NCBI GenBank assembly: GCA_963832025.1
Contig: CAWHSF010000003.1
Coordinates: forward strand, 15,665 to 79,664
Direction: 5' to 3'
DNA: 64,000 bases
Source: Candidatus Nomurabacteria bacterium
GTDB lineage: Bacteria > Patescibacteriota > Minisyncoccia > Phycocordibacterales > UBA9973
The position numbers and the translations under genes are program-made. The notes under the pieces are model-generated. The model was not told where the DNA came from, ran no database searches, and was given only the letters and a program-made list of their open reading frames with translations. This document shows positions 1 through 60,951 of this stretch, piece after piece (position 1 is the stretch's first letter; each line of letters starts with the position of its first letter).

Positions 1-523
1 TCTGTCAGCTCCTCTAGTTTTTCTTCCATGAGTTTTTTTATATTTGGACAATTTTTACCGTTTTGATTATTTTTTGCATTTTTCTTTTGAACATTAAAAC
101 CTAAGAAGGCAAGGATTGCTGCACCAGCTATTAAAAGTGTAGTAATTATTATATTGTGACCAGCTTCATTGTTTGTATCTGCTGGTGGAACAATAGGATT
201 TGCATCGTTAGTTGTTGGTGTTGGCTTAGATACGAGAGAAGATATCGCTTTGGGCTCTGTTTTTATAGCAGAAACAGGCTTGGCTGCTGGGATTGGCTGG
301 CTGGAAACAGGAACAGGTGTAGTACTACTGCTTGAAGAAATGGTGGTGCCAGCAGGATTAGTACTAGATGAATTAGAAGCAGTTGACGGAGAAGAATCAG
401 CCGTAGCGGAAGCTGGTGCGACACCGGTAGATGACGATGCTGGGTCAGTAGCTACTCCTTGCGCAAAAGCTAAAAGTGGAAGAAAGGTTACAAAGAAAAG
501 TATGTAAAAAATAATTTTTCCCA
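1..523 (-). CDS. secreted Ser/Thr/Pro-rich protein with a TM helix (3' end beyond window edge)
   Basis: Hand translation of the minus strand from ATG 521-523 gives MGKIIFYILFFVTFLPLLAFAQG (signal-like), a long S/T/P tract, and a TM helix IIITTLLIAGAAILAFLGF. The frame is still open at position 1. The + ORF 169..507 is its antisense shadow. Confidence 0.5.
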
Positions 524-536
524 TGAAATCAAAAAG

Positions 537-1166
537 TTATTTTAATTCATTAATGTTGTTTTTTATCATTTTCACAATTTCTGGAAACTTGGAGATTTTA
601 AAATGTCCGTTTTTACTTTTGTAAATAATAATTTTTGCTGTCGGTAATTTTTGGCGATATTTTTCAGCATGGGAAACGGGAACCACGTCGTCATCTTTGG
701 AAAACATCAGTGTTAATTTGTTAGAATTTTTTTCAAGCAAAGACAGATTAGATTTAAGTTTAAAACCGCCAACTAATTCTTCTTCTGTGTGCATTGTGTT
801 GTCAAAAGGTGGGCAAGTTAAATACGTTGATAGTATCTTTTTTGGAAACTTGTTTTCAGATAAATATTTTGCGAGAAAAATTCCACCCAATGAATTACCA
901 ATTAAAATAATATTATTTTTCAAATAAGGGAAATATCTTTCAAAGCAGATTTTCCACTCATTATATTTAGCATTGTCCTGTAAAGGCATACGAGGTCTAA
1001 TAATTTCAAATTTTTCCCCTAGCTCTTTGTCTAAATAATTCTGAGCCCATCCTAGATTTTTACTTAGGAGAGAAATCTTACGAGTTTTGAGATAATGCAA
1101 ATAATCCTTTTGGTTTCTAAAAGTGTTTCCACCATGTATTAAAAATATTTGTGGTTTGTTTTTCAT
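537..1166 (-). CDS. alpha/beta-fold serine hydrolase (YdeN/RBBP9-like)
   Basis: Has LIHGGN near the N-terminus, a GNSLGG nucleophile elbow (GxSxG), and late D...H residues (SKDDDVVP, NGHF). Size is about 200 aa. Confidence 0.6.
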   Translation of the reverse strand: MKNKPQIFLIHGGNTFRNQKDYLHYLKTRKISLLSKNLGWAQNYLDKELGEKFEIIRPRMPLQDNAKYNEWKICFERYFPYLKNNIILIGNSLGGIFLAKYLSENKFPKKILSTYLTCPPFDNTMHTEEELVGGFKLKSNLSLLEKNSNKLTLMFSKDDDVVPVSHAEKYRQKLPTAKIIIYKSKNGHFKISKFPEIVKMIKNNINELK

Positions 1167-7234: not shown

Positions 7235-8418
7235 ATTGACATAACTGGTTTTCTCCAAGATTTGAGAAAAATAAATACACACATCGCGACAAACGTCACC
7301 GTCGCGGCAAAAACAAATGCATAAGAAGGATTTAAAATCCAAAGCAAGCCCGCAATCGCCGAAGCCGGAAGATAAATCAAACCGGTGACAAAATTATACA
7401 TTCCGATGGCGGTCGCCCGCCTGTCTTTTTCCAAATCGGTAATAAATACTTTGCTTTGGGCTTCATCAATACTATAAAAAATACCGAACATTAAAAATAA
7501 TATTATTACCTCCCACTTGGCTTGAACAAAAACAAATCCCAGACACATCACGATATAAATAATGTATTCCAAGACGATAACATACTTGCGTCCGATGAAA
7601 TCACCTAACTTTCCTATAGGCACCGACAAAACCACAAAAGAAGTATTGAAAAGCGCATAAAGTAAAACGACATCCTTGATGGAAAAACCTATTTTGTAAG
7701 CTTTTAAAAGCAGAAAACCAAAACTGAAATATGCCAAAGAAAAAATTCCGGCGGAAACTAAATATTTTTTGAAACCCGTGCTCAAAGTTTTCCAAGCTTT
7801 AAAAATATTTTCTTTGGTGTGCGTTGCTCCGGGCCGGTCTTTCATTAAAAATAAAACTAACACGGCCCCAATCGCTCCGCACATTGAGATGATAAAAATT
7901 AATTTAAAAGTGCCGATACCCTGCCCAAACCATAAAAGCAAGAAGTATGCGACCAATGGGCCCAAAATTGCTCCGGCTTTATCCATGGCATTATGCAAGC
8001 CGAAAGCATAACCTTTATTTGATTCATCTGCCACGGATGCGAGCCAAGCATCTCTCGGCGGACCACGAAAACTTTTTCCAAGTCGCTCAATTATGCGGAA
8101 AGATGCAAGCGCTGTTACGGAATTAGCCACTAAAAGTATTCCCTTGGCTAAAGTGGAAAAACCATAACCAATCAATGCAAGTGGCCTTCTTTTACCAGAT
8201 TTGTCCGAAAGCCAGCCGGAAAAATAATCCAGAGATGACGACGAGAAATCTGCCAAGCCTTCCACTATTCCAAGCAACGCCGCCGAGGCGCCTAAAATTA
8301 CGGTGAAAAATATAGAGAAAACAGAAAAAATCGCCTCCGAGCTGATATCCGTCAGAAAGCTAACCCACCCCAATCTTATAACATCCGGGTCAACATTTAG
8401 AAATCTTTTCTTTGCCAT
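7231..8418 (-). CDS. MFS transporter
   Basis: About 12 predicted TM helices and an MFS-like loop (GWLSDKSGKRRP). Confidence 0.7.
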   Translation of the reverse strand: MAKKRFLNVDPDVIRLGWVSFLTDISSEAIFSVFSIFFTVILGASAALLGIVEGLADFSSSSLDYFSGWLSDKSGKRRPLALIGYGFSTLAKGILLVANSVTALASFRIIERLGKSFRGPPRDAWLASVADESNKGYAFGLHNAMDKAGAILGPLVAYFLLLWFGQGIGTFKLIFIISMCGAIGAVLVLFLMKDRPGATHTKENIFKAWKTLSTGFKKYLVSAGIFSLAYFSFGFLLLKAYKIGFSIKDVVLLYALFNTSFVVLSVPIGKLGDFIGRKYVIVLEYIIYIVMCLGFVFVQAKWEVIILFLMFGIFYSIDEAQSKVFITDLEKDRRATAIGMYNFVTGLIYLPASAIAGLLWILNPSYAFVFAATVTFVAMCVFIFLKSWRKPVMSI

Positions 8419-8441
8419 CCACCTATTATAACATTTTAAAT

Positions 8442-9581
8442 TTAGTTTAAATATTTCTTCTTTTTGAGTTTGTCCGGCAGGAGACTTTCTTTGGTATATT
8501 TTTCGTAACCTTTTCCATAATCGAGTTCTTTCATCAGTTTGGTGACTGGATTGCGTATCCGAAGCGGAATTGGCAAATTACCGAATTTTTTTACATCTGC
8601 CATCGCTGCCAAGTAGGCATTGTAAGCCCGGCGGTCTTTTTTGGCTTGCGATAAATAAACCACACCGTGCGCCAAATTCTCGGCGCATTCCGGCAGACCA
8701 ATCGTTTCCACTGCGCGAAAAACAGCGTTGGCAACGACAAGCGCCGTCGGCACCGCAAGCCCGATATCTTCGCTCGCAAAAACGACCATCCTTCTCGCAA
8801 TAAATTTCGGGTCCTCTCCGGCTTCAATCATCCGACACATATAATAGAGCGCGGCATCCGGCTGGCTGGCACGCATGCTTTTTATAAAAGCGCTGATAGT
8901 GTTGTAATGTTCTTCGCCTTTTTTGTCGTAACGCAAAAATTTTGACTGCAAGGCTTGCGTTAAATTTTCCACGTTTATTTTTCCGTAAAGATGAAGTGTG
9001 GCATCAAGCATGGCGATGGCTTGTCTTGCGTCACCGTTTGCCATTGCGATGAGCCAATCTTTTGCGACCGTATCCATTTTTATTTTTTCACTTTTTAAAA
9101 CACGCTCAATAATAAGGAGCATCTCTTCGTTTGAAAGCTCGTTCAAAACAAAAACCCGACAACGCGATAAGAGCGGCGAGATAACTTCAAAACTTGGATT
9201 TTCGGTCGTCGCTCCGATTAAAGTGAGTTCCCCTGACTCGACAAAAGGTAAAAGAAAATCTTGTTGGCTTTTGTTGAAGCGATGAATTTCATCCAGAAAA
9301 AGAATTTTTGATTTTTTATTTCTTTTGTCATCGATAATCTTTCGAATGTCATCTTTACCGGCTGAAACTGCAGATAAATCATGAAAATCCGCATCCAGAG
9401 CTTCCGCATAAATTCGCGCCAGAGTGGTTTTTCCTACGCCGGGCGGACCCCAAAGAATAAAAGAAAACAAATGTTTCTTTTCGATTGCCACACGTAAGGG
9501 CTTTCCTTCGGACACCAAATGTTCCTGACCGATAAAATCCTTTAAATTTTTAGGGCGTATTTTTGAAGCCAAGGGTTCCAT
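8442..9581 (-). CDS. rarA: replication-associated recombination protein A (AAA ATPase)
   Basis: Walker [12 protein letters not shown], Walker [12 protein letters not shown], and an MgsA C-terminal region ([15 protein letters not shown]). Confidence 0.85.
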
Positions 9582-16080: not shown

Positions 16081-16305
16081 CTAGCTTTTTTCTCTCGTCA
16101 ATTTTTTAATTTTCGCCTCAACTTTGGATGCCAAAGACCTGTTTTTGAATTTCTTAGAATAAACAACTTTCACTGGCCAACGCGAAGAAGTGTATCTAGC
16201 GCCCAATTTACCACCATTGTGCTCCTTCACCCTACGTTTTAAATCAGTAGTAATGCCAGTATATAAGGTTTTATCAGCACATCGGAGAATGTAAACACAA
16301 TACAT
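16081..16305 (-). CDS. GIY-YIG nuclease-family protein (UPF0213-like)
   Basis: Motifs YCVYILRC...LYTGITTDLKRRVKEHN. Size 74 aa. Confidence 0.75.
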   Translation of the reverse strand: MYCVYILRCADKTLYTGITTDLKRRVKEHNGGKLGARYTSSRWPVKVVYSKKFKNRSLASKVEAKIKKLTREKS

Positions 16306-16371
16306 ATTCTGATTATATCACTTCTAATTATGAATAAAATGTGTTAAGTTTAGTGGGTTAGAATACCATTT

Positions 16372-20013: not shown

Positions 20014-21012
20014 TTATTTATTTAAATATTTTCTCACCGCCAAGAAACTGGAAATAACTCCCAATAGTATACCCGATACCAAAAGAATTGCAAAAATTTG
20101 GAAAAAGCTCGAAAGGTAATAACTATACATATTGATTCCGAGAAAACTGGTCATGGTGCGTCCGAGCCAGACACTCGCCGGCCAAAAAAGAAGCATGGTT
20201 ATGAGAGTCGCCACCACGCCATAAATGGCCCCTTCAATCATAAACGGTCCACGAATGTGCATTTTGGAAGCGCCGACTAGACCCATCACGCCGATTTCTT
20301 CTTTGGAAATAAAAATAGTCAAACGAATCGTGTTAAAAGTGACAATAATAGAAATAATAACTAAAAGTAAAGTAAGCAGAAAGCCCAGCTTTTGTCCTCC
20401 ATCAATAATGGCGTTGAGTCTGTCTATCACTAATTTATTTTGATTGTAGTCCACTTTGTCTATGATGGATGTTGAACCCAAAGAAAGCGCATTATCGGAC
20501 TGCAAGAAATTCGCAATGTCTCCATACTGAGAAGTGTCTTTGGCTTTTACGTCTAAATAAGCGCCCAAAGGATTTGTCCCGATTTCATCTAAAGCTTGAA
20601 TCGTCGGATAGTCACTCTGATGACGGTCGCGGAAAAGTTGAAGTGCGTCGTCTGCACTGGTATAAGAGACAGAAGCCACTTCAGGTAATTGTTCCAAGGA
20701 AGATTTTAAAGATAGAATCTGATCTTCCGGCGCGCCCACTGTGAAATATATCGTCACATCCACTTTGTTTTCAATTTGAGCGAGAGAAAAATGTAAAACT
20801 GCTTGAAAAAAAATAATAAGAGTGATGACCACGAGGGTAATGGTCATCACCAAAATTGCCGCCCAAGAAACAACCCCACCTCTTTTAAAGTTTATAAATC
20901 CGCCCTTTATAATTCTTCTTAATCTCGTCATTGCCATGGGTTTTATTATATCACCCCGTAGTAGATTTTGGCGAAGCCTTTTGGGCGCACTTTGCGCATC
21001 GCCAAAATTCAC
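20014..21012 (-). CDS. ftsX: cell-division permease-like protein FtsX
   Basis: Lies downstream of ftsE. It has an N-terminal TM helix, an extracellular domain and 3 C-terminal TM helices. The start may instead be the internal MAMTRLRR. Confidence 0.8.
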   Translation of the reverse strand: MNFGDAQSAPKRLRQNLLRGDIIKPMAMTRLRRIIKGGFINFKRGGVVSWAAILVMTITLVVITLIIFFQAVLHFSLAQIENKVDVTIYFTVGAPEDQILSLKSSLEQLPEVASVSYTSADDALQLFRDRHQSDYPTIQALDEIGTNPLGAYLDVKAKDTSQYGDIANFLQSDNALSLGSTSIIDKVDYNQNKLVIDRLNAIIDGGQKLGFLLTLLLVIISIIVTFNTIRLTIFISKEEIGVMGLVGASKMHIRGPFMIEGAIYGVVATLITMLLFWPASVWLGRTMTSFLGINMYSYYLSSFFQIFAILLVSGILLGVISSFLAVRKYLNK

Positions 21013-21021
21013 TACGGGGTA

Positions 21022-21810: not shown

Positions 21811-22071
21811 TATCCCGTACAGAACAGGAAACGCTTCAATCTTTGCTTCAGATAAAGCTTACCTCTACCAGATTTTAAATATAACTCGCGGTTTCTTGCG
21901 TCATTTTCATCCAGACACGCTTCGTAATATATTATTTCGAATGGACCTCGTCCTTTAGTATATTTAGACTCTCCATTACAATGTTCCTTGAAGCGTTTCC
22001 TGTAAGTCATTAGTATACCCTGTGTACAAATTACCACTTGTCTTACTTTTTAATACGTAAGTGTAAAACAT
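21810..22071 (-). pseudogene. GIY-YIG nuclease-family gene with a 1-nt frame break
   Basis: MFYTYVLKSKTSGNLYTGYTNDL (ATG 22071) is in one frame. RKRFKEHCNG...RELYLKSGRGK is in the track ORF 21810..22037. The break lies near 22000..22006. Confidence 0.6.
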
Positions 22072-23287: not shown

Positions 23288-23363
23288 TGGAGCCGTTGAT
23301 CGGGATTGAACCGATGACCTCGATATTACCAATATCGTGCTCTACCAACTGAGCTACAACGGC
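23288..23363 (-). tRNA. tRNA-Thr (anticodon GGT), CCA encoded
   Basis: Hand fold: acceptor GCCGTTG/CAACGGC, anticodon stem CGATA/TATCG with loop TTGGTAA, T arm ATCGG-TTCAATC-CCGAT, followed by TCCA. Confidence 0.85.
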
Positions 23364-23380: not shown

Positions 23381-23436
23381 ACCAACTGAGCCCCGCCCGA
23401 CTGAATGACTTCAGTCATTCGGGCAGGTACAACGGC
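23381..23436 (-). other. truncated 5' copy of tRNA-Thr(GGT) (nt 1-20) carrying a 36-nt GC-rich palindrome between nt 9 and 10
   Basis: tacaacggc (23428..23436) and accaactgagc (23381..23391) are identical to the adjacent tRNA. They are split by CCCGCCCGACTGAATGACTTCAGTCATTCGGGCAGG (23392..23427). Confidence 0.7.
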
Positions 23437-35400: not shown

Positions 35401-37192
35401 CTATGTTTCCGGTCATTATGCCTATGTGACAGATGCCAATTCTCTGACTTTGTCTGTCATCGATGTTTCCAACCCGACTGCTCCGAATCTCATCGGAAGT
35501 CCATTGTCGCTGACTGCTCCTCTCTTCATCTATGTTTCCGGTCATTATGCCTATGTGACGGAAAGTGGTGGGAGCATGGATATCATTGATGTTTCCAATC
35601 CGTATTCTCTGAGTATTGTCGGTACAGCCACAGGACTTGGTTCTCTTGATGGCAATGTCTATGTCTCCGGTCGTTATGCGTATGTAACAAATACTGCTAG
35701 TAGTGGTGATATGTATGTCGTTGATGTTTCCAATCCAGTTTCTCCAAGTACTGTCGGTACATTAGGACTTTCTTGGCCTCTTGGTATCAATGTCTCCGGT
35801 CATTATGCCTATGTGACGAGTTATGCTGGTGGTGGCATGTATGTCCTTGATGTTTCCAATCCGACTGCTCCAAGTGCTGTTGCTCTTACACTCGGACTGA
35901 CTACTCCTTCTTTTATCAGGGTTTCCGGTCGTTATGCCTATGTGGTGGAATCTACTGCTAGTTCCATGGCTGTCATTGACCTCACTGGTACCCAAACAAC
36001 TTCTCTCACCTCCGGTAGTGCTAACATCGGTAACTTGCAAATTGCTAATGATGCTTTGATTGGTGGTCAACTGCAGGTGAATGGTGGTTTGACGGCAAGT
36101 GGTGGAAACTTTTCGGGGGATGTGGCGACTGAGGGAGCGTTAATTGCAAATTATCTTTCTGTTGGTCCTGGTTCTCCGTTTTCAGTAGATTCCTCCGGAG
36201 ATGTTTTAGCTTCCGGAGATGTTTCCGCTGGGTCATTGCAACTTTCTAATGTTACCGGATCCACGCAATGTCTGCAAGCAGATTCCTCAGGAAATATTAC
36301 TGGCACCAGTTCACCCTGTGGAAGCGGTGGTGGTCTCACTGTCGGTACCACCACTGTCAGCTCCGGAACATCGGGATATGTCTTATATGACAACGGAGGA
36401 ACTTTGGGTAACTTGAATGTCACCGCCACCCCAACCGCTTCCACCATCGCCGAATGGGATGCGAACAAGAATTTGTCGGGGAATGCTTTTATTCCATCTT
36501 TCACAACAACTGCAACTGCTGGAACTACAACTACCATGACAATTGCTTCAACTGAATATCAATTTTGGACTGGAGTAAACACAAATCAAACTGTAAAACT
36601 TCCTACAACTTCTGTTGCTGCTGGTGCAACTTATGTTATAGAAAATCAAAGTACTGGTACAGGCGCGGTAACAGTGCAATCTTCCGGAGCAAACCAGATT
36701 ACTATTTTAGCTCCGGGAACAAGTGGAACATTTACTTCAACAAAAGCTGCTCCGACTGCAGCTGCTGATTGGGGATATATTTATAATGGAGCAACTGCTG
36801 CTGCTGGTGGCTCCCTCACTACTTCCGGAGCTTACCCGATTACTTTGACAGGAACAGCTTCGACAACGGTTACGTTGCCTACTACGGGAACCTTGGTAAA
36901 CTCTACAGTAGCAACTCTTTCTTCTTTGACTTCTACCGGAACGATTACGACTGGTGGATTGGGAACGGGGGCAGTTATTGGAGGAGTGACTATGACTCTC
37001 GGCTCAGATGCTTCTTATGATATTTATTATCGAGGTTCCGGTGGAGTTCTGACCCGTCTCGCAAATGGTACTTCTGGTCAATATTTGGGCGCAAATACCG
37101 GCGCCGCTCCGAGCTGGCAGACGCCAGCGGGTGGTCTCACTGTCGGTACCACCACTGTCAGACTCCGGAACATCGGGATATGTCTTATATGA
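32465..37192 (+). CDS. giant surface protein with two blocks of LVIVD-type beta-propeller repeats and tail-fibre-like repeats
   Basis: N-terminal signal/TM segment. About 15 copies of YVSG.YAYV.D...G.M.V.DVSNP..P.VVGT. Each block is followed by [27 protein letters not shown]. The ORF ends at a frame break inside duplicated DNA. Confidence 0.75.
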
Positions 37193-37932
37193 CAACGGAG
37201 GAACTTTGGGTCACTTGAATGTCACCGCCACCCCAACCGCTTCCACCATTGCCGAATGGGATGCAAACAAAATTTGTCGGGGAATGCTTTTATTCCATCT
37301 TTCACAACAACTGCAACTGCTGGAACTACAACTACCATGACAATTGCTTCAACTGAATATCAATTTTGGACTGGAGTAAACACAAATCAAACTGTAAAAC
37401 TTCCTACAACTTCTGTTGCCACTGGTCAACTTATGCTATAGAAAATCAAAGTACTGGTCCAGGCGCGGTCAAGTGCAATCTTCCGGAGCAAACCAGATTA
37501 CTATTTTAGCTCCGGGACACAACTGGAACATTTACTTCGGCAAAAGCTGCTCCGACTGCAGCTGCTGATTGGGGATATATTTATAATGAGAGCAACTGCT
37601 GCTGCTGGTGCTACCCTCACTATTTCCAATACACCGCTTACTTTCACAGGCACAGCTTCGCACGGTTTACGTTGCCTACTACGGGAACCAGTTGCATACA
37701 CTCTACAATGTAGCAACTACTTTCTTCTTTAACCTTTGGAACAATTACGACTGGTGGATTGGGAACGGGGGCAGTTATTGGATGGAGTGACTATGACTCT
37801 CGGCTCAGATGCTTCTTATGATATTTATTATCGAGGTTCCGGTGGAGTTCTGACCCGTCTCGCAAATGGTACTTCTGGTCAATATTTGGGCGCAAATACC
37901 GGCGCCGCTCCGAGCTGGCAGACGCCAGCGGG
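36332..37932 (+). repeat. tandem duplication of an ~800-bp coding unit; the second copy is riddled with indels
   Basis: 36332..37132 recurs at 37133..37932. The first ~25 bp and last ~146 bp are identical, while the middle differs by many small indels and substitutions (for example cagctccgg versus cagactccgg). Confidence 0.8.
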
Positions 37933-40900
37933 AGGATCACAAACTCCATGGACTGGAAATATAAATGCTGCTGGATATACTCTCTTTGGTAACAACACCG
38001 CTGGAGGTGCACTAAACCTAGCAAGTACTAGTGGTACAGGTTCCAATGATGTGGTTAACATTAAAGGTGGTACGGCTGGAGGAACAACAATCGCTAGCTT
38101 CTTTGGGGCGGGAACGTATGCTGGAAGAGTTGGAATTGGAACGACGACACCGAGTCAATTATTTAGCGTAGGGAGTACCAGTCAATTTACAGTTGATTCT
38201 TCGGGTAATTTGAATTCCCAGACATTATCCATTGGGGCCGGACTAACGTCAGTTGTGGTCAGTGGAACTGGAACCGGTTCAGATGGTAGTCCAAATGGAA
38301 CTTATTATTTTAGAGGCGTTGAAAACGGGGCAAACTACTACCAGCTTGGTAGCAGTAGTTGGTATATAACTTATAACGGTTCCGGCACTTGGGGTATTTG
38401 TATTTATCTCAATTCCAGCACTTGCAGCACGTATGGCAAGTATTTTTCTCAATCCGGTACCGTTCCTACTCCGCCTAACAACAGTTCTTGGTCTGACACC
38501 GTTTACACAGGGTCAATTACGACTGCCGCAGGTACGTCAAGTAATCTGACTGTCGATAACGCAGGTGACATAACATCCTACGGAACTTTAACTGCAGTTT
38601 CTCTTGCCACGACTTCCGGCCAACCATTTGAATTGCCGACGAGCAATGCTACCGCCGGATGTCTGAAAACAAGCGCTACAGGACAAATGTCTGTCGCTAC
38701 TTGCGGAGATGTAGACAATCAATCATTCAATGCCAATGGTACTTATTCCATGCCTTCTGGTGCCTTGATGATAGTTGTCGAAACTTGGGGTGGTGGCGGC
38801 GGTGGTGGCGGCGGCGCAGGTGGCAACAACTTAAACAGTGCTCACGCTGGAGGAGGAGGTGGAGGAGGTGCATCTTATGTAAATAGTATTTTTTCAGCAA
38901 CAACACTAGGCACACCGGGAACAACCACGCTTCAAGCTATCGTGGGTGGAGGAGGTGCCGGAGGTGGAGGAGGAAATAATGTAAACGGCACTGCTGGAAA
39001 TTCTGGTGGTTCAAGTTGTTTATCTACCACAAATTGTACAAGTGGAACCATTTACGTGGAAGGATGGGGAGGTGGAGGTGGCGCTCAGGGTGCAATATCA
39101 AACACCCAAGGTGCCGGTGGTGGTGGAGGAGGAGGTGCTGAAGCAGTTGGAGGTAATGCAAGTACAACAACAGGTGGTACCGGAGGAGCGCCACAAGGTT
39201 CTACAGCCGGTACAGCAAACTCAGGATACGGAGGTGCCGGAGGTGCCACTTCAACAAATGCGGCGGTAAATGGAGCATCAGCACAGTATGGAGGCGCAGG
39301 CGGAGGCGCATCAACAACAACAGGAGCAAATGCATCAGGTAACGGAGGTGGCTCAGTAATCGGAGGCTCGGGTGGAGGTGGAGGAGGTTCGGTCGCTGTC
39401 ACAACTTATGCAAAAGAAAATGGAGGTGCCGGAGGTACTGGTCAAGCCATTGCAGGTGGAGGTGGAACCGCAGGAACAACCAATGGCGCTGGAGGAAGTA
39501 ATGGAAATCCCGGCGTTGGAGGAGGAGGAGATGGTGGAGGTGGAGGTGCAACGAACAGCACAGGTACGGGAGGTACGGGAGGTACGGGAGGAGCGAGAGG
39601 TGGCGGTGGCGGTGGCGGTGGCGCAACTGGTACAGGAGGTCATGGAGGTACAGGAGGCACAGGAGGTGCAGGTTTTGTGCGCGTCTGGTCATACATGGGA
39701 CAAGGTGCCGACTTGGCAGAAATATATGGCACGATGGATCCAACTTTGTCTCCGGGTGATATCGTCGCAGTTGACTCCGCCATGCAAGCCGGAGTAAAAA
39801 AGAGTAGTGTCGCTTATGATTCTACTGTGATCGGAGTCGTTTCCACTAACCCTGGCATCGTTATTGGTAATGTTTCAGACCCGGGAGCCACACCAGTGAT
39901 GGTAGCACTTGCCGGACGTGTACCGATGAAAGTAAATATGGAAAATGGTCCGATTAAGAGCGGAGATTATCTAACGGCATCTTCAACTCCGGGTGAAGCG
40001 ATGAAAGCCACCAAGGCAGGATTAGTAATCGGAGAAGCAATTACTCCGTACAACACCACTGACATGCCGGGCATCGTGATGGCATTTATTAAGGCCGGAC
40101 CTTCAAACGGTTCAAAACTTACCGACTTGATTCCCGGACTGACGACAGATGATGGAACAACTACAGACAGCTCAACAACGAATAGTAATTCAACAACATC
40201 TATTTCTCCACCGACCACGACTGATACGATTGGAACATCTTCTACTACAACTGCGACTACACCATCTGCTCCGACCCAAACGATAGAACAGCAAGCTCTC
40301 GCCTATTTCAACACCGGTCGCGCGGTACTTGCCACGCAAGTTGATTTATCGGAAGTAACCACCGACAGAGTCAGTGCCGGATTGGAAGTTATTACTCCGG
40401 ACTTATATGCCACAAACGTACACACCGACACAATTCAATCCGCAACCGGAGACAACATCGGTTTGATTTTGGATGATAGCGGAGAGTTTACAATCGGTAA
40501 ACAAACAATTAGCACAGTGGTAAATCCCGATGGCACCACCACACCTACGACAATATACACCCCGGAAATAACGATGGATAATCTGGGCAACGCTGTCTTT
40601 AGCGGCGGCTTGACCATCGGAACTCCGCAACAACCAAACGGAATTACGATGTATGACACTACGACTGGCAGCCCATATTGTTCTCGCATCACAAATGGAA
40701 CGATGGTCACCTCTCCGGGCAAGTGTAGTGACATCTTGGGATTACCAATACAAAATACCGCTTCGGTAATAAACAGTACGAATCCAAATTCAGGTAATAA
40801 TAATTCTTCAAACAATACGAACAACACTACAACAACCTCCACGGATAACACCACAGCACCTGCAGACACTTCGGACACTTCGGACACTTCGACAAGCACA

Positions 40901-48671: not shown

Positions 48672-49580
48672 TTAAATCGCATTAACTGCTATACTTGAAT
48701 TATTTTTAAAATCTACATTTTTGGCATTGTGATTATTATAAAAACGCTTAGCTAATTCACTCACTTGCATCCATAGAAATGACCAGATCCAAACTAGAAT
48801 AATGTATTTAAAAGAAATTGCTGTAGTAAATATACCAAAAAATGCAATAAGGCTGGCAATAATTTGAGTTATGATAGTTGCCCAAATAACTTGTTTTGAT
48901 GGTAAGAATTTATACCAAGGTTTTTCAGTATGTGCAACATAAACCAGCATGTGTCCTGATACTGTAAGTTTTAAGAAAAATAATGTTTGGATAATAATCC
49001 ATGGTGCGTGAAAAACGGTAATAGCAATCCAAAGTAAAATCATACTATTACAAATACCAGTGAATCCAAAAAGCAGACTAAGGGCAAAACGCTTTCTTGG
49101 ATTCACACTAGCTGGAGCTTTGGCTAAAGTAACTCGGTCAAAAGCGAGAGAAATAATGGGAATATCATTCAAAAGAGCAATCAAAATAATTTGCACTGGC
49201 GTCAGAGGATAAGTGCCAAAAATCACACCAATAATAGCAATTGTCACAATTAATCTGAAACTTTCCGAGATTCGATAAAGCGAATAATTATACAACCGAG
49301 TAAAAACATTTCTTGCTTCTATAATTGCATCTTTGATCACAGCGATACCTGGCAGAGTTAAAACTATATCTGCTGTGCCCTTGAGCGCATCAACTGCATT
49401 TGCCACAGCGAAACCCACATTCGCTGCTTTGATTGGTGGCACATCATTTACACCGTCACCCGTAACCGCCACGACATATTTTTCTGGCAAAGATTGTGCC
49501 ATTTTCACTAAATCATATTTATCTTTCGGAAGAACTTCAGCAAAGCCAGCAAGTGAATTGAATTTTTCTTTTACTCCATC
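48672..49580 (-). pseudogene. P-type ATPase, C-terminal third only (5'-truncated)
   Basis: Contains GFAEVLPKDKYDLV, TGDGVNDVPPIKAANVGFAV and C-terminal TM helices. The frame runs without a start into the 3' end of the tRNA-Asp-like gene. Confidence 0.7.
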
Positions 49581-49653
49581 AACACCGACCGGATTTGAAC
49601 CGGCAACCTCCCGCGTGACAGGCGGGTGCTCTAACCAGTTGAGCTACGATCGC
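49581..49653 (-). tRNA. tRNA-Asp (anticodon GTC)-like with a non-complementary acceptor 3' strand
   Basis: The D, anticodon (CCCGC-CTGTCAC-GCGGG) and T arms fold normally. The 5' strand GCGATCG faces CGGTGTT instead of CGATCGC, and homology is lost at about nt 68 (49585). Confidence 0.55.
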
Positions 49654-49704
49654 ATATATTTGATTTACAAACCGACACCTTCTTATTGCTTTCGTTTCCG
49701 CCTT

Positions 49705-49773
49705 GGCGGGTGCTCTAACCAGTTGAGCCCGCCCGAGCGACTGAAGCCGTTCAGTCGGGCGGGCTACGATCGC
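49705..49773 (-). other. truncated 5' copy of tRNA-Asp (nt 1-31) carrying a 36-nt GC-rich palindrome at the nt 9/10 junction
   Basis: ggcgggtgctctaaccagttgag...ctacgatcgc is identical to the adjacent tRNA. It is interrupted by CCCGCCCGAGCGACTGAAGCCGTTCAGTCGGGCGGG (49728..49763). Confidence 0.7.
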
Positions 49774-50001: not shown

Positions 50002-50040
50002 ATATGTTAAAACTTATTTTATTATAGAAAACTACTTTTA

Positions 50041-50106
50041 GGCTCATAACCTTGGGTTATTCGCGCTATTAGTCTTTCTGGAGATGCCTCTTCTCTATCC
50101 CGCTAT
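50041..50106 (-). other. leader containing a 24-nt 5' copy of the CAT tRNA plus a 14-nt antisense match to its anticodon arm
   Basis: 50081..50104 repeats 49978..50001. The plus strand at 50041..50054 (ggctcataaccttg) is the reverse complement of 49960..49973. Confidence 0.65.
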
Positions 50107-50186
50107 GTAAAAAATCACAAAACTACACTTTAAAAGGATGTTTTTTGAGACTACTTTATTTTACCTTAAATTTTCTAAAAAGCAAC

Positions 50187-57397: not shown

Positions 57398-57938
57398 TTA
57401 TATATTTTTATATTCAATTTTTTTAAAAAGAAAGGCAACCAGAAAACCGATGCAAAAACCGCCCAAAATATCAATGGGAAAATGTACTCCAGCGATAATT
57501 CGCGCGATACCTATGAGTAAAGCGAAAAACATAAATACGTAACCTGCTTTTTTGTGCAGAAAAAAAAGAGAAAAAGCTAAAGCCATAAAAAAAGTTGCGT
57601 GTCCGGACGGAAAAGAATACCAACTTTCGGCAAACAAAGGATGGACTTGAGAAAAAACATCAAATGGACGTGGAGTGTGAATAATGTATTTTAAAATTAT
57701 ATCGAAAAGATAAGCGATAATGCCGATAAAAAATACCATGAGAATCTCTTTCTTCTTTTGCATCAAAACCAGAAAAGGTTCTTCTGCTTGAAAGACTTCG
57801 TGATGGAAAAGCAAAAAAAGTCCAGCTAGAATAATCACAATATAGGGAAAATAAACGGCAAAGAAAACCACAATCGTCATCAAAAATTTTTGACTGATGA
57901 GCTAAACCATAAAAAAAGAAAAATATTGCGTCGTTCAT
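57398..57938 (-). CDS. PAP2-family phosphatase, 1-nt frame break in an A5T5 run (57882..57891)
   Basis: MNDAIFFFFYGLAHQSKIF (ATG 57938) is followed, in the other frame, by TIVVFFAV... with PSGH and ARIIAGVHFPIDILGG. Confidence 0.7.
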
Positions 57939-57941
57939 AAA

Positions 57942-58813
57942 TTATTTTTTGCCACGGTTAATACATTCTTGAGAAGCATCGCTACAGTCACGGGACCAAC
58001 TCCCCGGGACCGGCGAAACATAGCTTGCAACATCTTTGACACTTTCCAAATCAACATCACCGACGATTCCGCCTTCGGATTCAGAAGTACCGGCATCCAC
58101 CAGCACCGCTCCTTCTTTTATCATATCACCTCTAATATATTTTCCCTTCCCTATCCCAGAAATTATAACATCTGCTTCTTTGAGAAGCTTCTCCTTGTTT
58201 TCCCCGCCTGCCAAGCTTCGCCGTAGGCGTTGCGGGCAGGGGTTTTACTGGTAATTATTGTCGGATTTAGATTCCGAAATTTCAGCAACGCGACAACTGG
58301 TTGACCGACCAGAGCTCCTTGCCCCAAAACAACTATCTTTTTTTCTTTCAAATTTAAATTAATAGAGTCCAACAACGCCATACAAGAAACCGCGGTCGGA
58401 AAACCCAAATCCTGCTCTCCGCCATAACTACTATAAAATTTTTCACTTCTCTCTTTTCCTAAGCAATCAACGTCTAAGTTCCGTATCAATGCTATCCAAT
58501 ATTGCTTGCTTGTCTAAATGAACCGGAAGCGGAAGTTGAACAATAATTCCGCACATATTTTTTATTTTATTCAAAATTTTTATTTCTTCTATCAACTCGG
58601 GGGTACTGATAGATGCCGAAAAATTTGCATTGTGGAATTTCATGCCGACTGACTTCAGCATTTTTTGCTTTCATCTGCACATATTGACCGACTCGCAGGA
58701 TCATCCCCAACCAACACATCACAAAAAATAGGCGTAAAAGGCAAAGTTTCTACTTCCTTTTTTACTTTTTCCAAAATTTCGTTTTTTAGTTTTTTCCCAT
58801 CTATGATTTGCAT
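57942..58813 (-). pseudogene. folD: methylenetetrahydrofolate dehydrogenase/cyclohydrolase FolD, broken into at least 5 frame segments
   Basis: Recognisable pieces lie in different frames: MQIIDGKKL..GDDPASR / QYVQMKAKNAE / SVGMKFH..GIIVQLPLPVHLD / LDVDCLG..VVLGQGALVGQP / EADVIISGIGKG..VLVDAGT / PVTVAMLLKNV. There is also a 41-nt palindromic insert. Confidence 0.75.
58202..58242. repeat. GC-rich palindromic insert inside folD
   Basis: CCCCGCCTGCCAAGCTTCGCCGTAGGCGTTGCGGGCAGGGG flanked by T-runs. Its termini (CCCGCC...GGGCAGG) match the inserts in the tRNA 5' copies. It is translated as PARNAYGEAWQAG. Confidence 0.6.
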
Positions 58814-60848: not shown

Positions 60849-60951
60849 AGAGATATAATAACACCCGGTAGTGAGTTTTGGCAACGCACAACGTGCGTAA
60901 ATTTTTTAAAATTTACATTGCCAAAATCTACTACCGGGAACATTAAAAATT

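Follow-up and report, generated by a model that had tools for sequence, protein, structure and literature searches.

In the window (the whole stretch of DNA that we analyzed, 64,000 nucleotides long), we found that nucleotides (nt) 1–33 of the neighboring tRNA-Asp gene are repeated at 49705..49773 on the minus strand and that this copy is split by a 36-nt palindrome (49728..49763). The window is AT-rich (~39% GC), and its GatA places it in the Paceibacteria/Nomurabacteria part of Patescibacteria. When the insert is deleted, the joined flanks of the tRNA-Asp relic match the 5' part of tRNA-Asp at 33/33 positions with a junction after nt 10. The initial annotation had described a 36-nt palindrome inside a 5' copy of tRNA-Asp, which the sequence confirms; the copy is indeed of the neighboring gene, and it extends over nt 1–33, not nt 1–31. 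The 9/10 junction that had been given for it is 10/11 by the family consensus, and a single G leaves 9/10 equally readable. The first bases of the spacer, AAGGCGG, form a short snap-back palindrome with the last relic bases (CCGCCAAGGCGG), and no similarity was detected between the spacer (49654..49704) and the sequence upstream of the relic. The full-length tRNA-Asp at 49580..49653 is overlooked by ARAGORN and found by Rfam. Coordinates of all features are collected in Table 1.

Table 1. Features of the window and of the syntenic cluster in three relatives; positions of window features count from the first letter of the window.
Feature	Position	Strand	Details
tRNA-Asp relic, nt 1–10	49764..49773	-	GCGATCGTAG
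36-nt GC-rich palindromic element	49728..49763	-	CCCGCCCGACTGAACGGCTTCAGTCGCTCGGGCGGG; canonical 'top' strand on minus, tRNA-sense
tRNA-Asp relic, nt 11–33	49705..49727	-	CTCAACTGGTTAGAGCACCCGCC; ends in anticodon stem/loop
Spacer, relic to functional tRNA-Asp	49654..49704	-	51 nt; starts AAGGCGG
Full tRNA-Asp(GTC), cognate of the relic	49580..49653	-	Rfam 54.9 bits; two non-standard acceptor pairs
Second copy of the 36-nt element	23392..23427	+	CCCGCCCGACTGAATGACTTCAGTCATTCGGGCAGG; top strand on plus, antisense to tRNA
tRNA-Thr(GGT) relic, interrupted by the element	23381..23436	-	nt 1–9 at 23428..23436, nt 10–20 at 23381..23391
38-nt GC palindrome in probable folD pseudogene	58203..58240	.	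Frame-breaking; covariance model R1 11.2 bits, E ~2
Intron/LAGLIDADG cluster, relatives	L122 7112..7435 (-), 8291..8575 (+); L124 8355..8645; L126 8018..8310		

The Asp relic and its hairpin are reproduced exactly in an independent Logan assembly (contig L001, 99.96% identical), indicating that the structure is not an assembly artefact. The functional tRNA-Asp of the window has its last 3–4 acceptor bases replaced, and in L001 this end is intact (CGGTCGCG). The window reads CGGT followed by GTTG where the intact gene reads CGGTCGCG (49560..49600), and from there the tRNA continues in frame into a 5'-truncated P-type ATPase ORF with a GDGVND motif (48672..49590, minus strand); the L001 contig terminates at the intact tRNA-Asp end. 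Either the 3' end of this tRNA was really rearranged, or the tRNA-Asp/ATPase join is an assembly chimera. A metagenome scan for the relic-specific junction gave no empty allele of the Asp relic site, and relatives fetched through GatA have a different arrangement there.

A second copy of the palindrome interrupts a relic of tRNA-Thr(GGT). This relic reads GCCGTTGTA, 36 nt and GCTCAGTTGGT, and the real tRNA-Thr(GGT) (23288..23363) follows 17 nt downstream; the joined flanks of the relic are identical to the tRNA at 20/20 positions and its junction falls unambiguously after nt 9, as had been claimed. When the Asp insert is taken from the minus strand and the Thr insert from the plus strand, the two agree at 31/36 positions with no gaps, and the orientation of the element relative to the tRNA is opposite in the two relics. 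We built a covariance model (R1) solely from copies in other genomes and ran it on the 64-kb window, where it scored the Asp copy at 58.5 bits (E ~4e-12) and the Thr copy at 63.8 bits (E ~2e-13), with no further match above ~11 bits. As had been proposed, the two inserts are the same element, related by alignment statistics with model E-values of ~1e-12 to 1e-13. The Thr 36-mer recurs identically in other CPR and FCB genomes, and a variant present in both groups is one substitution (T27C) away from the Asp copy. It is possible in principle that GC-rich low-complexity hairpins merely resemble each other by chance, or that the structure arose in assembly; there are just two copies in 64 kb, and the 9-mer CCCGCCCGA, at up to one mismatch, occurs at merely ~2x its shuffle frequency. 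We consider this explanation extremely improbable given the gapless identity and model E-values, the same structure in an independent assembly and a family of more than 100 loci that come from many studies and assemblers.

Both strands of the element fold as single-stranded DNA into a stable hairpin (–14 to –15 kcal/mol, z –4 to –6; for the Asp element, –14.4 kcal/mol, z –4.3). There are two near-isoenergetic registers, one with GACTGAA/TTCAGTC pairing and an RTTC bulge and the other with a 9-bp stem, AYGAC/GTCRT pairing and a CTGA bulge. Neither position 15 nor position 26 was fixed by the search pattern described below, and the two co-vary among the matches listed (C-G 44, T-A 25, T.G 17, C.A 0), which supports the second register. 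The presence of T.G without C.A at this pair favors the top strand, pair 3:34 is symmetric (14 vs 14) and all other pairs are fixed by the search pattern, so that the evidence for one functional strand is mixed. An intrinsic-terminator T-run is absent after the window copies, which are followed by CTCAACTGG or CTACGATCGC; it is present after some Bacteroidota copies.

To describe the family, we scanned one genome per GTDB species with the pattern GCCCGACTGAANNNNTTCAGTC, the core of the unit (22 nt with 18 specified bases and four Ns), and found at least 118 loci, where the rough chance expectation is ~17. The pattern is thus not unique to the window, and the GC-rich palindromic family, which had been described as small, is far larger: the consensus unit (CCCGCCCGACTGAAYGACTTCAGTCRTTCGGGCGGG) recurs with hardly any change at more than 100 loci, which belong to Patescibacteria or to the Bacteroidota/Ignavibacteria group. 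Of the matches listed, 105/130 have the unit in full, CCC GCC CGA CTG AAY GAC TTC AGT CRT TCG GGC GGG. Among these matches, the 14 positions outside the search pattern are ~82–100% conserved (mostly >93%), figures that come from matches chosen by the exact 18-specified-base core and under-sample diverged copies. By label, the full unit is present at 47/47 CPR loci, 42/54 FCB loci (Bacteroidota, Ignavibacteria, Chlorobi) and 2/12 loci of other phyla among the matches listed. The CPR carriers are Yanofsky-, Kaiser-, Taylor-, Nomura-, Lipton-, Zambryski-, Azam-, Magasanik- and Howlettbacteria and 'Saccharibacteria', and some MAGs have several copies per genome. At least six identical 36-mers, including the window Thr variant, are common to CPR and FCB. 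The FCB contigs with the element encode T9SS sorting domains and SprB repeats, indicating that they are genuine Bacteroidota and that the cross-phylum signal is not a binning artefact. In the syntenic ~50 kb of the closest sampled relatives (GatA 79–87% identical), there is no canonical copy.

No Rfam family matches the element, and we found no description of it when the literature was searched by DNA string, encoded peptide and concept; this widespread palindromic mobile element of 36 bp is apparently undescribed. Phage or plasmid vectors were considered and rejected, with 1 match in IMG/VR and none in INPHARED or PLSDB. No family recurs among the proteins encoded within 2 kb of the copies (at least 118 loci), which are of housekeeping families only. 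A linked transposase was also rejected: all-against-all clustering of the 1239 ORFs within 2 kb gave just ABC-transporter/FtsX paralogues and artefacts. TIGR arrays are tandem and lie beside a Tas gene (PMC12045711). We rejected a CRISPR or TIGR repeat since copies of the element are solitary, Rfam gives only sub-threshold matches (CRISPR-DR28, 15.8 bits vs a 35-bit cut-off) and there is no shared neighbor gene; the 36-nt length is a coincidence.

Copies with known targets allow the insertion to be read at nucleotide resolution. RecG orthologues of three CPR genomes have clean 12-codon presence/absence at three different independent sites, with a 12-residue insert in one or two proteins per site (PARTTESVQSGR; PARLNDFSRSGG/PARPNDFGRSGG; RPTERARSFGRG) and a clean gap in the rest. 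The joined flanks of relics are 100% identical to the cognate tRNAs over 33–44 nt across the junction (the window Asp relic, L027, L071, L116 and L023). Taken together, these data indicate that insertion adds exactly 36 bp and neither duplicates nor removes target bases. Among the matches listed, 13 copies lie inside long ORFs and 12/13 are in phase 0, in which both strands are stop-free and encode the peptides PARTTExVQSGG or PARLNDFSRSGG.

The position of the insert within tRNA sequence, together with the real group I introns that relatives hold in tRNA-Asp and tRNA-Met, could suggest that an intron-like or split-tRNA sequence intervenes at D-arm position 9/10 and is cut out of a functional transcript. 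We tried this reading by in-silico removal and rejected it. Across ~130 copies, ARAGORN calls no tRNA after the unit is removed, even when the excision is shifted by up to 1 nt in either direction, and no full-length tRNA carrying the insert as a removable unit emerged from this check, which the initial annotation had proposed. The Asp host ends at nt 33 without a 3' half, Rfam gives no intron match and the copies in ORFs appear, from their reading frames, to be translated in frame and not spliced, so that an intron is scarcely credible here. One full-length tRNA-like host is present (L050, tRNA-Ile-like); it has lost its anticodon loop and holds three different palindromes. On its minus strand (~430..580), an 18-nt palindrome follows nt 13, the 36-nt unit lies in the D loop and ~14 nt replace the anticodon loop.

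The joined flanks are tRNA-like for 37/108 full copies among the matches listed and 71/108 are not in tRNA-like DNA. Again among the matches listed, tRNA-like context is seen at 20/47 CPR loci vs 4/42 FCB loci. Junctions within tRNA-like DNA fall after nt 7, 9–10, 12–14, 20–22, 26, 54–55 and 65, in both orientations. The commonest is after nt 20–22 (GGTTA^GAGC); the junction after nt 9–10 is shared by the two window copies, L035 and L114, and those after nt 54–55 and nt 65 lie in the T arm. The preference for one precise tRNA position proposed by the initial annotation does not survive this spread, nor does the same position for the window pair, whose copies have opposite orientations and lie one nt apart by consensus. 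Many insertion sites read TA^G or A^GA. These data point to a real D-arm enrichment within tRNA-like DNA, often at TA^G (GGTTA^GAGC, GTA^GCTC), that is not tied to one nucleotide position. Insertion at the stem boundaries of any local hairpin fitted the tRNA D and T arms, but it was rejected because junctions at such boundaries were not significantly enriched when all sites were counted (0.21 vs 0.18 in controls). In a Bacteroidales MAG (L051, 2335..4972), at least eight tandem 327-bp units each combine a tRNA-Arg 3' fragment (nt 45–73) with the 36-nt element in the T loop.

A third palindrome in the window interrupts folD, and with it all three (the Asp copy, the Thr copy and the folD cousin) lie within relics or a pseudogene. 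The folD gene (57935..58813, minus strand) falls into at least five reading-frame fragments, with the palindrome at one of the breaks, and the neighboring genes are intact; in L122 and L126, an intact folD is present at the syntenic place. The window folD is probably a pseudogene. The folD insert matches the 36-nt model through its 8-bp termini only, and it is identical at 27/38 positions to a 38-mer at L122:3136, with identical ends of 11 and 9 nt. The link to folD that had been drawn from the insert termini is therefore retained for the terminal inverted repeats (CCYGCCYG/CRGGCRGG) and not for the core, that is, at the superfamily level only, and the insert is 38 nt long. Palindromes of 20–41 nt with the ends CCYGCCYG...CRGGCRGG are common in the fetched loci, and a 20-mer (CCTGCCTGCCGGCAGGCAGG) is a cousin palindrome in several CPR genomes. 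From sequence comparison, the folD insert may be a superfamily cousin that belongs to a separate 38-nt subfamily. The window also has repeats of other kinds. A second, unrelated inverted-repeat family of ~70 nt is present at 20953..21020 and 60864..60938, with arms CCCCGTAGTAGATTTTGGC that include GTAG and have three matches vs 0.08 expected by chance. Two copies of a GC-rich ~50-nt stretch (TATTTGGGCGCAAATACCGGCGCCGCTCCGAGCTGGCAGACGCCAGCGGG) lie 800 nt apart at 37087..37140 and 37888..37940, in the most GC-rich part of the window (~36–40 kb, up to 51% GC).

Three relatives (L122, L124 and L126) with GatA 79–81% identical to that of the window have the same tRNA cluster. In these relatives, the cluster includes a tRNA-Met with a group I intron after U33 (Rfam 61 bits), GIY-YIG and LAGLIDADG genes and, in L124, a large serine recombinase. 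Their tRNA-Asp has an intervening sequence of ~205 nt after CCTGT at 35/36 (Intron_gpI 34.7 bits, E 2e-7), and a group I intron at 35/36 of Patescibacteria tRNA-Asp/Asn has been described (PMC13011429). The 3' end of the window Asp relic is 2–3 nt short of this site. Just after tRNA-Met2, which is the place of the Asp relic in the window, the relatives have a decayed intronless tRNA-Asp fragment and then a LAGLIDADG gene; this ORF abuts the 5' end of tRNA-Asp, and the decayed fragment is upstream of it. In the window, two small stand-alone GIY-YIG ORFs are found on the minus strand (16087..16317 and 21837..22019), one adjoining tRNA-Gln and the other ~1 kb from the tRNA-Thr pair, and similar genes lie between the tRNA genes of the relatives.

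The window also has a third 5' relic (50040..50107, minus strand), in which tRNA-Met nt 1–24 is followed by 25 unrelated nt and an inverted copy of the anticodon arm (CCAAGGTTATGAGCC). The GC palindrome is absent from this Met relic. The inverted arm of the Met relic and the snap-back at the end of the Asp relic suggest that breaks in the anticodon loop were repaired by fold-back. In L122, an identical module composed of tRNA-Thr nt 1–21, CCTGCCTGCCGGCAGGCAGG and GAGCAC, with the 20-nt palindrome at the D-loop site, is present at 8905..8955 and 9312..9360; one module ends 16 nt before tRNA-Thr(GGT) and the other 9 nt before tRNA-Thr(CGT), and together they bracket a GIY-YIG gene. The D arm of the functional L122 tRNA-Thr(GGT) differs from that of the module.

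These clusters bear on two further explanations. The first takes relic and hairpin as the scar of site-specific recombination or homing: the relic would be the attL-like remainder of an element that entered the tRNA gene and supplied a new 5' part, and the palindrome would be a recombinase or endonuclease site spread by break repair or gene conversion and not by transposition. Such a scar is favored by the extent of relics in other genomes, which begin at tRNA nt 1 and in many cases stop at nt 33–37 in the anticodon loop, and by one relic (L071) that duplicates –18 to +35 cleanly in tandem. The large serine recombinase adjoining the L124 cluster, the breakpoint at the 3' end of the window tRNA-Asp and one Magasanikbacteria genome, in which an identical variant occupies the same D-loop site in the same orientation at 5 loci, also fit. 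However, the homology-free insertions at unrelated sites (the three RecG sites, other ORFs and intergenic DNA) require true transposition, the copies have no recombinase linked to them within 2 kb, the spacers are too short for elements and most show no sign of duplication. We regard this explanation as unlikely. Tandem duplication as a general origin of relics was rejected, being clear in L071 only, weak in three loci and absent for the window relics.

The second explanation would give the hairpin a function. By analogy with the GC-rich PstI palindromes beside tRNA genes in Neurospora mitochondria, relic and hairpin could be a selected cis-acting module of the tRNA operon, serving in processing, termination or insulation or as a decoy that shields the tRNA from homing endonucleases or integrases. 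In many CPR genomes and lineages, the cognate tRNA is preceded, at a distance of 20–130 nt, by a 5' tRNA copy with a hairpin, and homing-endonuclease genes and introns crowd these tRNA clusters. In L122, two tRNA-Thr genes are each preceded by the Thr module, which lies on both sides of a GIY-YIG gene, and the D arm of the functional tRNA-Thr is changed. Nevertheless, the element occurs in both orientations at tRNA sites and is also present in pseudogenes, in unrelated contexts in Bacteroidota and, in frame, in proteins; the window copies have no T-run after them, the window Met relic has no hairpin and relics vary in extent and position. A selected module is, in our judgment, improbable, slightly more so than a recombination scar.

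We conclude that the Asp insert belongs to a non-autonomous mobile DNA element, a GC-rich imperfect palindrome of 36 bp, and that this copy sits in a non-functional 5' tRNA-Asp relic and has no role there, a reading to which we give a probability of about 0.72. In the best reading, the element is a selfish mini-element, REP-like or GC-cluster-like, that survives only in dead DNA or in frame; its targets are tRNA relics, pseudogenes, intergenic DNA and long ORFs. Insertion, which is seen in either orientation, would occur at the DNA level, because there is no orientation bias relative to transcription. The element would probably be recognized through its 8–9-bp terminal inverted repeats (CCYGCCYG...CRGGCRGG), and its hairpin or cruciform form may also be recognized, by an enzyme that would act in trans and not be encoded beside the copies. 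Purifying selection would then remove copies that land in functional tRNAs or out of frame, and copies in dead DNA or in frame would persist. The relic itself would be a scar of the turnover of selfish elements at the tRNA clusters of this clade, whether by introns, endonucleases or integration at tRNA genes, and the hairpin may have come later. At the Asp locus, the hairpin would then be inert DNA in a dead tRNA fragment.

Two observations sit uneasily with this conclusion. The excess of tRNA relics (20/47 of the listed CPR loci, relics being a tiny part of the genome) is unexplained by a weak TA^G preference and selection, and the L122 Thr 5' copy, with a 20-nt palindrome 9–16 nt upstream of two tRNA-Thr genes, could hint at a function. 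The association of relics with hairpins is strong enough that the two may be mechanistically linked. To our knowledge, a unit of 36 bp (or 20 bp) is smaller than any element with a demonstrated mechanism, and we know of no transposition intermediate for it.

A more far-reaching proposal, which we hold only tentatively, is that the 36-bp unit and its 20–41-bp cousins are an undescribed class of ultra-small bacterial mobile DNA that inserts exactly and in either orientation, duplicates no target bases and moves in a way that matches none of the known transposase families, and that the near-identity of CPR and FCB copies reflects ongoing DNA exchange. In DNA that readily forms hairpins, such as the D and T arms of tRNAs, the mover could be a structure-specific nuclease/ligase, or insertion could occur by template switching. 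In a stronger variant, insertion of the hairpin and formation of the 5' relic would be two outcomes of one event of break and repair at a tRNA gene. If this proposal is true, the element would be a tracer of gene flow between CPR bacteria and hosts or at the community level.

If our preferred reading of a mobile element in a dead relic holds, the element is among the smallest bacterial mobile units known and, unlike REPs, is nearly unchanged across distant phyla. The mechanistic question is then which enzyme moves an exact 36-bp hairpin without target duplication. It would also account for the recurrent 12-residue inserts (PARTTExVQSGG, PARLNDFSRSGG) in CPR and Bacteroidota proteins and for odd tRNA-like fragments that confuse annotation, and the element may mark DNA traffic between CPR bacteria and their neighbors or hosts. 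The 5' tRNA copies of the window would be dead relics, and the tRNA cluster a hotspot for introns, homing-endonuclease genes and rearrangements.

Among known systems, REPs and REPINs are repetitive extragenic palindromes that are moved by RAYT tyrosine transposases and fall into GTAG- and CGTC-tagged super-families (PMC3733652). Like them, the element is a 20–40-bp imperfect GC-rich palindrome that is dispersed, non-autonomous and present in many copies (a 36-nt hairpin at more than 100 loci), its hairpin has unpaired bases and there are occasional copies in ORFs, notably of replication and repair genes (here, RecG). In contrast to REPs, the element has no GTAG or CGTC tag, and its ends are CCC.../...GGG with no conserved flanking tetranucleotide; the GTAG beside the Asp copy belongs to the tRNA. 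Within 2 kb of the at least 118 element loci there is no recurrent RAYT or other transposase, copies are often in frame in ORFs and in tRNA relics, and the 36-mer is common to phyla whereas REP families are species-specific.

Mitochondrial GC clusters include GC42 of yeast (PMC4478555) and, as cited in that source, the double-hairpin elements of Allomyces and the RHEs of sponges. The element shares with these clusters a GC-rich hairpin of ~30–45 nt in an AT-rich compact genome, several families with common ends, palindromes nested in palindromes and loop-biased variation. As for GC42-type clusters, there is presence/absence polymorphism, in RecG for the element, whose host window has ~39% GC. 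However, GC42 has an AG target duplication and no dinucleotide is duplicated at element junctions with known targets, and GC clusters are organellar whereas the element is found across bacterial phyla.

Rickettsia palindromic elements (RPEs) are palindromic selfish DNA that persists in frame in protein genes as a tolerated peptide; they are ~100–150 bp long and restricted to the genus. The element resembles RPEs in its in-frame survival and differs in its size (36 bp, 12 codons) and its unrelated sequence. It is also like MITEs in being non-autonomous and in having 8–9-bp terminal inverted repeats (CCYGCCYG/CRGGCRGG) around differing interiors in elements of 20–41 nt, but exactly 36 bp is added with no target-site duplication, and MITEs are usually 50–500 bp. 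In Neurospora mitochondria, GC-rich PstI palindromes flank tRNA genes. These are likewise conserved GC-rich palindromes beside tRNA genes in an AT-rich genome; they flank intact genes, whereas the element interrupts dead tRNA fragments and is also present in ORFs. The group I intron at 35/36 (PMC13011429) occurs in the same gene family and clade, and relatives have it in tRNA-Asp 2–3 nt from where the window relic ends; in contrast to this intron, the hairpin has no ribozyme, lies in the D arm and not in the anticodon loop and has a truncated relic as its host. The nearest analogues of the element are REPs, mitochondrial GC clusters and RPEs.
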